The notes under the pieces: model-generated
Told to the model about the DNA's origin: nothing
The model's database searches: none
The model's input: only the letters and a program-made list of their open reading frames with translations
Shown here: positions 54,549 to 57,500 of the stretch, one piece after another
Layout: each line of letters begins with the position of its first letter
Position numbering within the stretch: the stretch's first letter is position 1
Position numbers and translations under genes: made by a program
Origin: an uncultured Acidobacteriota bacterium
GTDB taxonomy: Bacteria > Acidobacteriota > Thermoanaerobaculia > Multivoradales > UBA5704
DNA: 64,000 bases
Reading direction: 5' to 3'
NCBI GenBank assembly: GCA_963770895.1
Contig: CAVYRF010000001.1
Span: 1,536,001 to 1,600,000 of the forward strand

Positions 54549-57500
54549 TCAGAGATGGCTGGAGAACCACCGCACGATGGCGGCGGTGGCGGTGACGTCG
54601 TTGTCCTGGTTGAGCAGCCCGTGCCCTTCGTCGGGAAAGACCAGAAGCTCGGCGGCGGCGCCGTGCCGCCGCTCCAGCGCGGCGGCCAGCTGGCGCGCCT
54701 CGTCGAGCGGCACGTTGGTGTCGTTGGCGCCGTGGACGATGAGGACCGGCGCCGTCACGCGGTCGATCTTGTGGATGGGCGACAGGCGGCGCAGCATCTC
54801 GCGGTCGCGCTCGGGATCGCCGTATTCCAGGCGCGAGATCGCCGCCATCCACGGCTCGGTGTTGGCGAGGAACGTTTCGAAGTTGACGATCCCCGAGAGG
54901 TTCACCCCCGCCGCGAACAGGTCCGGGTACTCCGCCAGCCCCGCCATGACCAGGAAGCCGCCGTAGGAGGCGCCCAGGATGCCCAGACGGCCCGGCGCCG
55001 CAAGGCCGCCGGCGAGCAGGTGGCGGGCGCAGGTTTCGACGTCGCGGATGGCGTCGAAGCGCAGCGGGCCGTCGTCGAGCGCGGCGAAGCGGCGGCCGAA
55101 GCCGGCCGAGCCGCGGATGTTCGGGGCGAAGACGCCGATGCCTTGGGCCAGCAGCGCCTGGTAGTCGCCGCGGAAGCTCGGCAGCTCCTGGCTCTCCGGT
55201 CCGCCGTGAAAGCTGATGACCATGGGGCCCGGGCCGGCCGCGGCAGGGTACAGCCAGCCGCTCAGCGGCAGGCCGTCGTGCGCCGGGAAGCACACCAGCC
55301 GCGGACGGTGGAGCGCCGCCAGGTCGATGCCCGGCGCCTGCGGCCAGGTGATCTGGCGCCAGCCGGCGGTGGCGCGATCGAGCACCCAGAGGCTGCTCGG
55401 CGCCGTCGGTCCGCCGGCGGCCACGACCAGGCGGCTGCCATCCGGAGAGAAAGCGACGTCGCCGGCTAGCTCGTCGGGCAGCGGCAACGGCCTGCGCGCA
55501 AGGTCGACCAGGTCGACGATCTCCAGCTCGCTGCGGCCGCCGGCGTTCCACACCAGCGCCGCCGCGGCGCCGTCGCGGCTGAGCGCGAACAGGTCGAGCT
55601 CGGCGTCGTCGCGCGCCGCCAGCAGCTCGAGCGGGCTGCTGCCGTCCGCCGCGATGCGCGCAAACGCGGCGCGGTCGCGGTCGCGGTTGGTGAGGCAGTA
55701 GACGGCGCCGCCGCGCGCCATCGCGCCGCGGCAGATGCCTGGCCGGTCGGTGGGCAGCAGCTGCCGCAGCAGGCCGCTGCGGCGATCGACCAGGGAGAGC
55801 CCCTCGACTCCGCGCAGCAGCATTTCGAACACCAGCACCGCGCCGTCCGCGCACAGCGCGTCGGCGGCGCAGGAGACGGTTTGGCCGCGCGCCAGCTTTT
55901 CCATCCGCTCGGCGGCGAGGTCGAAGAGGTAGGGGCTGAGGGCCGCTTCGCCCTGCCGGTTCGAGCCCAGCAGCAGGGCGCGCCCGTCGCCGCTCCAGCC
56001 GCGCAGCCAGTTGCTCTCCTGGCCGCCGTCGCTGATCCGGCGCAGCCCGGTGCCGTCGGAACGCAGGCAGTAGACCTGCTGCTGGAGGCCGCCGCCGGGA
56101 GCCGTGGCGACGGCGATGAGGTCCTCGCAGGGAGACCAGAAGGCTGCCGTCACGGGGTCCTCGAAGTCGCTCACCCGCGAGGGCCAGCCGCCGGCCGCCG
56201 CCACCTTCCACAGCTGCGGCGTGCCGCTCATGTTGGACAGGAAGGCGATGGTAGAGCCGTCGGGCGAAAACGTCGGCGCGGTGGCGCGGGTGACCGCGGC
56301 GAGCTGGCGCACCCGGCGGTCGAGCGGCGCGGCGGCACCCCGCGGGCTGACCGCGCCGGGGTGGCGCACCGGCCGCGCCGGCCGCACCGTCCGCCGCGGG
56401 GGGCGCGCGGCCGCCGGTTCTGGCTCGCCGGCGCGCTGGAACAGACGCGCCTGGGTCTCCACGGTAGGGTGCTGGAAGAGGTCCACCACGGCGAGCGGAC
56501 CGACGTCGCGGCCGAGCACGTGGTGGAGCCGCAGCAGCAGGAGCGAATGGCCGCCGACGTCGAAGAAGCTCTCGGCCAGGCCGACGCTCGGGATGCCCAG
56601 GACCTCGCACCAGAGCGCCGCGATCTTCGCCTCCAGGTGCGAGGCGGGCCGCGGGTGGCTGGCCGGCGCGCGCCGCTCGCCGGCGTCGCCGCCGTCGCCG
56701 GTTTCGCCGGTACCCGTGGCGCCGCCGAGCGGCGGGGCGGCGCCGGCCAGCGCCCGGCGATCCACCTTGCCGGCGGCGGTGAGCGGCAGGCGTGGCAGGC
56801 TCACGAAGGCGGCGGGCACCAGGTATCCGGGCAGGGTCGCCTGCAGAAAGGCGCGCAGCTCCGCCGGCGTGGGGGCCGGCTCGCCCGCGGCGACCACGTA
56901 GGCCACGAGCTGCAGTTCTGCCGCCTCGCCGCGCGCCGCGACGGCGGCGGCGCGCACCTGCTGGTGGCGTTCGAGCGCCGCCGCGATCTCGCCCGGCTCG
57001 ACGCGGAAGCCGCGGATCTTCACCTGCTGGTCGAGCCTGCCGAGGAACTCCAGCTGCAGGTCGGAGCGCAGGCGGGCGCGATCGCCGGTGCGATAGAGCC
57101 GCGCGCCGGGCGCCGGCGACAGCGGGTGGGGGACGAACCGCTCGGCGGTGAGATCGGGGTGTCCCAGGTAGCCGCGGGCCAGGCCGGCACCGCCCAGGCA
57201 GAGCTCGCCGGGCACGCTCACCGGCATGGGCTCCATCCGCCGCTCGCCGCGGTCGGCGCCGTGGGCGCCAGCGGCCGCGAGCACGTGGGCCTCGACGCCG
57301 GCGAGCGGCCTGCCGATCGGCACCGTCGCCGGCAGCTCGGCCGCCGCCGCCGCCGTCGCCGGCGGCGTGCCGGCGGGCTCCCAGGCCGTGGCTACCACCG
57401 TGGCCTCGGTGGGCCCGTAGGTGTTGATCAGCCGCGCGCCCGGCAGCGCCCGCCTGCCTGCCGCCAGGTCGCCCGTCAGGACGGTTTCGCCGCCCAGGAT

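Follow-up and report, generated by a model that had tools for sequence, protein, structure and literature searches.

How does a nonribosomal peptide synthetase (NRPS) that ends in a peptidase let go of its product? The chemistry of release determines if an NRPS product comes out linear, is cyclised or goes on to further extension, and peptide engineers are looking for new off-loading catalysts; cyclases of the SurE type, related to penicillin-binding proteins, are among the known routes. The question is raised by a gene at the end of a 64,000-nucleotide stretch of an uncultured Acidobacteriota bacterium (assembly GCA_963770895.1, contig CAVYRF010000001.1). The window, by which we mean this whole stretch, corresponds to G000:C1:1536001-1600000, where G000 is the genome and C1 the contig. 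A first-pass annotation had described the gene, here called N4, as an NRPS that closes with a full S9 protease instead of a thioesterase (TE). The frame is free of stops over 54549..63998 on the minus strand and extends past the window edge to window coordinate 65762. It opens with a GTG start codon, with GGAG ahead of it, and the product has 3737 amino acids (aa). The parts of N4 that matter here are, in window coordinates:

54549..65762, minus strand: the whole NRPS gene N4 (3737 aa), whose 3′ part, 54549..64000 (9.4 kb), lies in the window.
56418..56624, minus strand: the last carrier domain, T3 (residues ~3047-3115), with the ketosynthase (KS)-feeding signature FFDVGGHSLLLLRL...DLFQHPTVETQA.
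56340..56417, minus strand: a Pro/Arg-rich linker (residues ~3116-3141), predicted to be disordered.
55233..56339, minus strand: the N-terminal helix and beta-propeller of the S9 unit (residues ~3142-3510), holding the changes R3313E, T3336L and H3338T.
54552..55232, minus strand: the alpha/beta-hydrolase domain of the S9 unit (residues ~3511-3737), with HGGP at 3519, the catalytic triad and R3722D.

Pfam and motif mapping gave N4 the order C-like, A-T, C-A-T, C-A-T, a linker of ~26 aa, a PD40 beta-propeller and Peptidase_S9 (C, condensation; A, adenylation; T, carrier). The C-like N-terminal region lacks the HHxxxDG motif. In the window part of the protein, Pfam matched Condensation at E 7e-196 and found three stretches each of AMP-binding and PP-binding. 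PD40 was matched at E 3e-9 and Peptidase_S9 (PF00326) at E 6.9e-43, with 147 bits against a cut-off of 22.6 over profile positions 2-210 of 213; the C-terminal piece of the S9 unit alone scored 150.4 bits. The Thioesterase family PF00975 was absent from N4 at E <= 0.01. In T3, FFDVGGHSL occupies 56541-56567, with the phosphopantetheine (Ppant) serine, Ser3073, at 56544-56546. The catalytic Ser3599 (54966-54968) lies in GASYGG (54957-54974), Asp3681 (54720-54722) in GANDTNV and His3714 (54621-54623) in DEGHG. By its model match, by the Ser-Asp-His order with GxSxGG and by its N-terminal propeller, the fused domain belongs to the PF00326 family. The fusion, the propeller and the intact triad read earlier from the letters alone are borne out by Pfam, by the motifs and by the alignment to 5L8S given below, and the positions then given for FFDVGGHSL, GASYGG and the other triad motifs agree with our mapping. 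TE, reductase and terminal C domains are indeed all absent from the N4 protein itself.

The fusion is very probably genuine. On either side of the linker, third-position GC keeps the same phase, at 0.87-1.0. The linker is a low-complexity Pro/Arg/Ala stretch that is GC rich at all three codon positions, so composition cannot judge the frame there. The nearest other S9 locus in the genome is 51% identical to the S9 part, and the identity is at most 51-55% across this and related genomes; the nearest paralogue of T3 in the genome scores 68 bits, against 186 for T3 itself. A repeat-driven misassembly or chimera is therefore unlikely. Read coverage across 56280-56560 had been proposed as a check, and this was answered in part. 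Short low-depth contigs from public runs reproduced 55976-56238, 56035-56228 and 56393-56537 without a difference, and these exact pieces flank the linker; among the public contig pieces listed, none bridges 56229-56392.

The description of N4 as ending in a peptidase "instead of a thioesterase" lost much of its force when the cluster was followed beyond base 64000. In transcription order, the operon encodes KS-AT-ACP-TE (AT, acyltransferase; ACP, acyl carrier protein), GT4, N1, TauD, N2, N3 and N4, and the gene ends abut or overlap from the polyketide synthase (PKS) through GT4, N1, TauD, N2 and N3 to N4. The first of these genes is as follows:

C1:1627842-1631738 (= L003:1842-5738), same strand as N4: KS-AT-ACP-TE gene (1298 aa), at the start of the operon and 28 kb beyond the window.

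Its product matches PF00975 at E 7e-24 and is the sole PF00975 protein in the operon. The KS motifs, namely the Cys (SACSTS), HGTGT and NIGH, are intact, as is the TE motif GASFG. A separate upstream TE that explains release had been named beforehand as a finding that would speak against the S9 as the release catalyst, and the KS-AT-ACP-TE gene largely supplies one. Claims based on architecture need the whole cluster, as this TE outside the window illustrates.

The order of domains in the operon leaves one carrier without a partner. N1 consists of a C domain with HHIVAD followed by A-T-C-A-T-C-A-T-C; N2 of a C-like region, A-T-E-C (E, epimerization) and a fused TauD; and N3 of a C-like region and A-T-E-C. 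N1, N2 and N3 thus each end their NRPS part in a C domain, and T3 of N4 is the one carrier in the cluster that a C domain does not follow. The cluster PKS, in turn, is one of three modular KS proteins in the genome that have no donor gene directly upstream.

To place T3, the carriers of the genome were typed by their downstream partner, which can show the next stop of a chain. Of the carriers, 240 stand behind an A domain; 15 of these pass their chain to a KS, either in cis or over a gene border. When the 240 were ranked against T3 with phmmer, 12 of the 15 best matches were KS feeders (hypergeometric 3e-15), and the two TE-feeding carriers ranked 16 and 19. T3 also has the motif pattern common to other KS feeders. 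In the congener G003, a KS-AT-ACP-TE protein 70% identical to that of the cluster stands directly behind a protein ending in A-T, and the carrier ahead of its KS is 51% identical to T3 over 69 aa. In other relatives, KS-AT-ACP-TE copies of ~50% identity terminate open frames of 3468-7179 aa. The tails after T3 and after the A-T protein of G003 both have RR(V)TVRPA, a likeness that is suggestive only, as BLASTP gave no alignment of the tails. An orthologous NRPS was sought in five congeners, where the best module identity was 54%; none of the five thus has an N4 orthologue that would show how the protein ended before the fusion. Since T3 is the lone unpaired carrier, is of the KS-feeder type and has a parallel in the arrangement of G003, the probable course of the chain is from T3 to the KS, with release by the TE of the PKS. 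KS domains were also ranked by likeness to the cluster KS; this did not separate NRPS-fed from PKS-fed domains, and only the census of donor genes was used.

What kind of peptidase, then, sits behind T3? The S9 unit aligns over its full length to the acylaminoacyl peptidase (AAP) 5L8S (E 3.9e-43; residues 22-594 of 604), and GASYGG, GANDTNV and DEGHG of N4 align with GGSYGG, GAKDPRV and DEGHG of 5L8S. In a PDB sequence search, AAP entries were matched at E 4e-43 to 1e-26 and entries for prolyl oligopeptidase (POP), DPP4 and OpdB at E 1e-12 or weaker. Foldseek likewise ranked 5L8S and the Aeropyrum pernix AAP above the POPs. An AlphaFold2 model of 703 residues was built from a 60-row alignment; 561 of the 703 residues have a predicted local distance difference test (pLDDT) score >90. 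The carrier domain and the linker, which lie outside the alignment rows, have low confidence, the linker part with zero rows and pLDDT <50. Between model residues 126 and 436 there are 26 strands with pLDDT >90, which form the predicted beta-propeller. The model superposes on 5L8S with a template modeling (TM) score of 0.91 and a root mean square deviation of 2.1 A over 596 columns. By sequence and predicted fold, the S9 unit is of the AAP (S9C) type and is neither a PF00975 thioesterase nor an S9A macrocyclase. It shares with AAPs (MEROPS S9C; 5L8S from Sporosarcina psychrophila, 1VE6/2HU8 from A. pernix) the propeller and hydrolase, the Ser-Asp-His order, HGGP and GxSYGG. It differs from 5L8S, to which it is only 22% identical, in being fused behind a carrier and in having replaced four residues that are near invariant in its clade. 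The second-best PDB match was the "S9 carboxypeptidase" 8WT1, so the match does not fix specificity within the AAP subfamily.

Among 67 stand-alone relatives, 124 columns are at least 90% conserved. The fused S9 keeps 115 of them, including the triad and HGGP, at ~50% overall identity, and because of this it looks to be under purifying selection and catalytically equipped, not decaying. The nine changed sites are R3313E, T3336L, H3338T, K3557R, N3564D, Y3603F, F3632L, V3675I and R3722D. Arg3313, Thr3336, His3338 and Arg3722 are each present in 62-65 of the 68 other sequences and are replaced in the fused S9. Six of the nine positions, including all four of these, are changed as well in P0024, a metagenomic protein described below (1.9 expected; P = 0.0027 if the two proteins are independent). 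These changes suggest that substrate recognition by the fused S9 is altered. The stand-alone S9 proteins of the clade (for example, P0004, 48%, and the paralogue at G000 C2:451477-453372, 51%) are 45-55% identical to the N4 S9 over the whole unit. Unlike N4, they are proteins of 600-750 aa that track taxonomy as a vertically inherited gene does, and they retain the R, T, H and R that N4 has lost. Most of the stand-alone relatives inspected have a signal peptide or membrane anchor, and the fused unit, P0024 and P0012 have none. The best-scoring relative of the S9 unit, P0003 (1241 aa), has two complete propeller-S9 units in tandem.

We then asked how rare the fusion is. The word-based searches are of limited sensitivity, and "not found" is the proper wording for negative results. 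When the S9 region was compared with proteins of 2055-6540 aa, N4 itself was the sole match among 2003 candidates. Among 8000 candidates of 1092-3115 aa, the S9 unit had 11 matches, and NRPS families were found in none of these. From the other side, the last N4 module was scored against 1703 long NRPSs, and among the 120 listed PF00326 was found only in N4. An exhaustive search of representative sequences yielded 54,040 S9 relatives, and 4 of the best 150, which were listed, exceeded 1000 aa; among 15 relatives scanned by Pfam, including all 4 of these, NRPS domains were found only in P0024. Genomes gave the same picture. S9 matches were present in 39 of 41 genomes (G000 with 40 relatives, 9 from the same genus, 15 from the family and 16 from the order), and the carrier part was covered only by the match in G000 itself. 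A stricter first look at a phylum sample of 400 further genomes found a close S9 match in 11, all stand-alone (the unpublished genomes G063 and G189 included). None of 41 genome-contig loci has a frame that encodes both an S9 and an NRPS domain, and the ESM Atlas, which covers large clusters only, returned ordinary S9 clusters (score 0.82), none with a carrier domain. The titled nearest matches of both the S9 and the NRPS come from metagenome-assembled genomes of Longimicrobiaceae/Gemmatimonadota and Thermoanaerobaculia/Acidobacteriota. A search of other genomes for a carrier followed by an S9 had been proposed in the first-pass annotation: a second T-S9 protein was not found, and one NRPS-type fusion of a different order, S9-A-T, was. 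That annotation knew of no characterised NRPS with such an architecture, and the literature searched likewise yielded none with a fused propeller-S9 unit. We regard N4 as part of a hybrid NRPS-PKS line that carries a rare fused hydrolase, probably in an accessory role.

The T-S9 architecture was thus found once, in N4, and S9-A-T once, in the following protein:

L012:9863-13633, plus strand: P0024, with an Asn-synthase-like gene, an MMPL transporter, an ABC ATPase, three PhyH dioxygenases and a glycosyltransferase as neighbours.

P0024 has 1210 aa and consists of S9, AMP-binding and PP-binding in that order, with GESYGG, the Asp and GEGHG intact. Like N4, it combines NRPS A and T domains with a complete S9 unit, 41% identical and from the same clade, and has no signal peptide; unlike N4, it carries the S9 N-terminal to a single A-T pair. 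A C domain was not seen within 10 kb on either side, and the locus may be a small carrier-dependent cluster for amino-acid tailoring. Outside NRPSs, fungal non-reducing PKSs are reported to have a sporadic extra Peptidase_S9 match behind other terminal domains (PMC9146135). These resemble N4 in being megasynthases whose C terminus matches PF00326, and they differ in not being NRPSs and in that a propeller is not described for them.

A phylogeny of the S9 domain, which had also been proposed, gave a divided answer. In a quick tree of 69 sequences, the fused domain groups with P0012 and P0024, weakly and on long branches (Shimodaira-Hasegawa-like approximate likelihood ratio test, 81). An alternative tree that joins the fused S9 to the S9 clade of its own genus is not rejected by the approximately unbiased (AU) test and in fact scores 25.7 log-likelihood units better (p-AU 0.80). 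If the second tree is right, the changes shared with P0024 would be convergent and their functional meaning strengthened. If the quick tree is right, they would mark a small carrier-associated lineage.

The arrangement that we tentatively prefer is as follows. N4 would be the last of four NRPS proteins in a hybrid NRPS-PKS line. N1 would open the line with its C domain (HHIVAD), and the terminal C domains of N1, N2 and N3 would pass the chain onward. The KS-AT-ACP-TE protein would then take over the octapeptidyl chain from T3 in trans, add one ketide unit and release the product through its canonical TE. The S9 unit, tethered ~26 residues past T3, would attack the carrier-bound chain via Ser3599 and hydrolyse its thioester. 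It would serve in editing, or as an additional way off the line in competition with handover to the KS, and not as the sole terminator. That the S9 acts in this way on the T3-bound chain, with the main release by the PKS TE, is a real possibility, if one that we place somewhat short of probable. We favour it because fused NRPS domains usually act on carrier-bound substrates, as with the TauD on N2, and because in P0024 an S9 altered in the same way is joined to a solitary A-T pair, with three PhyH genes nearby. The P0024 setting suggests that a hydrolase freeing a modified aminoacyl thioester would be a natural partner there. If the S9 does act on a carrier-bound chain, it would bring the thioesterases of assembly lines together with the S9 peptidases and macrocyclases that act in ribosomal peptide pathways, two groups so far known only apart, and it would be a chamber-type catalyst for thioester substrates.

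Several points weigh against this arrangement. The handover from T3 to the KS is deduced from domain typing and from a congener without an orthologous NRPS (best identity, 54%). The carrier type might reflect ancestry rather than present use, with the S9 having taken over release, and, with a 600-aa domain following it, the docking tail might reach the KS less easily. We know of no precedent for a Ppant arm that reaches the buried active site of an S9 enzyme. A predicted complex of T3 (92 aa) with the S9 unit scored 0.00 in a run that had no controls, a value that speaks neither for nor against binding. The changes common to N4 and P0024 may be due to common descent and not to convergence. Finally, the fusion is held by one genome among those searched, and selection on the fusion itself is therefore not demonstrable.

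A competing explanation, doubtful but credible, is that the S9 is a trimming peptidase. It would cut a peptide bond of the pathway's own lipopeptide, on-line or after assembly, for instance to remove an N-acyl amino acid or leader laid down by the first modules, while the PKS TE would release the chain. The nearest relatives in sequence and fold, the AAPs, fit this role, the starting C domain of N1 suggests an N-acylated peptide, and the loss of cationic conserved residues fits a changed peptide substrate. A model exists in the zeamine NRPS/PKS cluster, where the cytoplasmic acylpeptide hydrolase Zmn22, of the S9 type, removes an N-terminal peptide once assembly is complete; when Zmn22 is deleted, the prezeamines stay uncleaved (PMC5811116, PMC3547906). 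Like the N4 S9, Zmn22 is of the S9 type, has no signal peptide and works in an NRPS-PKS pathway. It is, however, a stand-alone protein of 345 aa with no propeller and no fused carrier, and the likeness is one of description, not of sequence comparison. Fusion, moreover, would bring little to an enzyme that works on released products, and the S9-A-T setting of P0024 shows no obvious peptide for trimming.

Gene neighbourhoods bear on the same idea. Two relatives carry, downstream of same-strand NRPS genes, a stand-alone S9 of the clade. The order in G009 (L145:7386-9320, minus strand) is an NRPS ending in A-T-C, MacB/FtsX, an ABC exporter and the S9. In G025 (L158:8959-10923, plus strand), the S9 follows by 1.3 kb an NRPS that ends in A-T with a 15-aa tail. 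These neighbours speak for trimming, but both S9 proteins have signal peptides and all four conserved residues, and 2 NRPS-adjacent loci of 21 are about what chance would give in genomes this rich in NRPS genes.

A bolder form of action on the carrier would make the propeller-S9 unit a new kind of NRPS off-loading domain. The thioester would be transferred onto Ser3599 and resolved by hydrolysis or cyclisation in a propeller-capped chamber, either to yield another series of products while ketide extension competes for the chain or to replace that extension altogether. We regard this as unlikely, if not strongly so. Were it true, the parallel loss of Arg, Thr, His and Arg in P0024 would mark a carrier-directed subtype of S9.

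We judge it quite unlikely that the S9 is the sole terminator, as first proposed, taking the peptide from T3 onto Ser3599 and releasing it by hydrolysis, macrocyclisation or transpeptidation while KS-AT-ACP-TE serves some other purpose. The S9 does occupy the slot of a TE, ~26 aa past the last carrier, with the same alpha/beta-hydrolase chemistry and an intact triad, and the rarity of the fusion and the constraint on the domain could be read in its favour. A type I TE (PF00975) shares with it the slot directly past the last carrier, the alpha/beta-hydrolase fold and Ser-Asp-His; such a TE has ~250 aa and a helical lid, whereas the N4 S9 has ~600 aa, a propeller lid and no PF00975 match. There are also S9A enzymes, PCY1 and POPB/GmPOPB, that are macrocyclases and in which the acyl-enzyme is resolved by an intramolecular amine (PMC5648786). 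PCY1, GmPOPB and OphP have the propeller and S9 hydrolase in common with N4 and match it in fold (TM ~0.72; PCY1, 0.72). They are only 14% identical to it, are matched at E 1e-7 to 1e-9 (against 4e-43 for AAP) and rank 23 or lower in Foldseek, below the AAPs; their substrates are free ribosomal precursors with recognition tails. The E values, the identity and the fold ranking place the N4 S9 outside the S9A macrocyclase clade, and the unit is of the AAP, not the POP, type. The canonical TE of the operon, furthermore, sits on a module that needs a carrier donor, for which T3 is the only candidate, and T3 groups with the KS feeders, not the TE feeders. The fusion was conserved in no other genome searched.

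The weakest explanation is an accident, either because N4 recently came to be read through its stop codon into an S9 gene behind it or because the linker was wrongly assembled or has a consensus error, with the S9 as a passenger or a separate protein that has no role in the pathway: the single genome with the fusion, the linker composition that gives no grip on frame, the unbridged stretch among the listed public contigs and the two stand-alone S9 genes downstream of NRPS genes are in keeping with it, but it is very unlikely given that the linker flanks share a stop-free frame, that the unbroken 3737-codon frame indicates good consensus quality, that the fused S9 lacks the signal peptide of its stand-alone relatives and that its branch is long (0.98, against 0.25 for the genome's own paralogue) with 93% of conserved columns kept, a pattern that speaks for a long history under constraint in a new role.

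Other features of the cluster deserve mention. The terminal C domain of N2 (G000:C1:1607393-1614595 = L002:393-7595, minus strand) is fused to a TauD-type dioxygenase (Pfam E 2e-42), and a separate TauD gene (L002:7199-8308) precedes N2; together, they indicate beta-hydroxylated residues in the product. At the protein junctions, a complete C-terminal C domain (of N1, N2 or N3) meets a C-like N-terminal region of 370-460 aa in the next protein. The HHxxxDG motif is degenerate at the N termini of N2, N3 and N4 (PALHADRQG, PALAADSDS and PGLCADART), the C-like N terminus of N4 lying at window ~64530-65762, beyond the window edge. These C/C-like junctions may be a docking or pseudo-C arrangement. 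A CHAT-domain protein of 974 aa is encoded ~6 kb upstream of the cluster (L003:11330-14254, minus strand). On the other side, the gene next to N4 is the following:

52473..54446, minus strand: GMC-oxidoreductase gene, 100 nt downstream of N4.

This gene possibly shares the operon of N4. The stretch downstream of N4 (window 40376-54446) holds, besides this GMC oxidoreductase with a gluconate-2-dehydrogenase subunit-3-like frame, two GT4 genes, an SCO1/SenC-like frame, a galactose-oxidase-like Kelch protein (47470-49035), a LanC-like protein (44170-45435, minus strand) and a metallo-beta-lactamase-fold protein. Window 1-9785 (plus strand) holds the end of another NRPS-PKS-NRPS line, unrelated to this one, which reaches upstream to G000:C1:1518395; its 5027-aa open frame ends ~220 aa past its last carrier domain. 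NRPS and PKS genes are extraordinarily abundant in this lineage: the 8.16-Mb genome G000 has 273 carrier-domain matches and ~24 modular KS domains, and its congeners have 18-120 matches to one C-A-T module.

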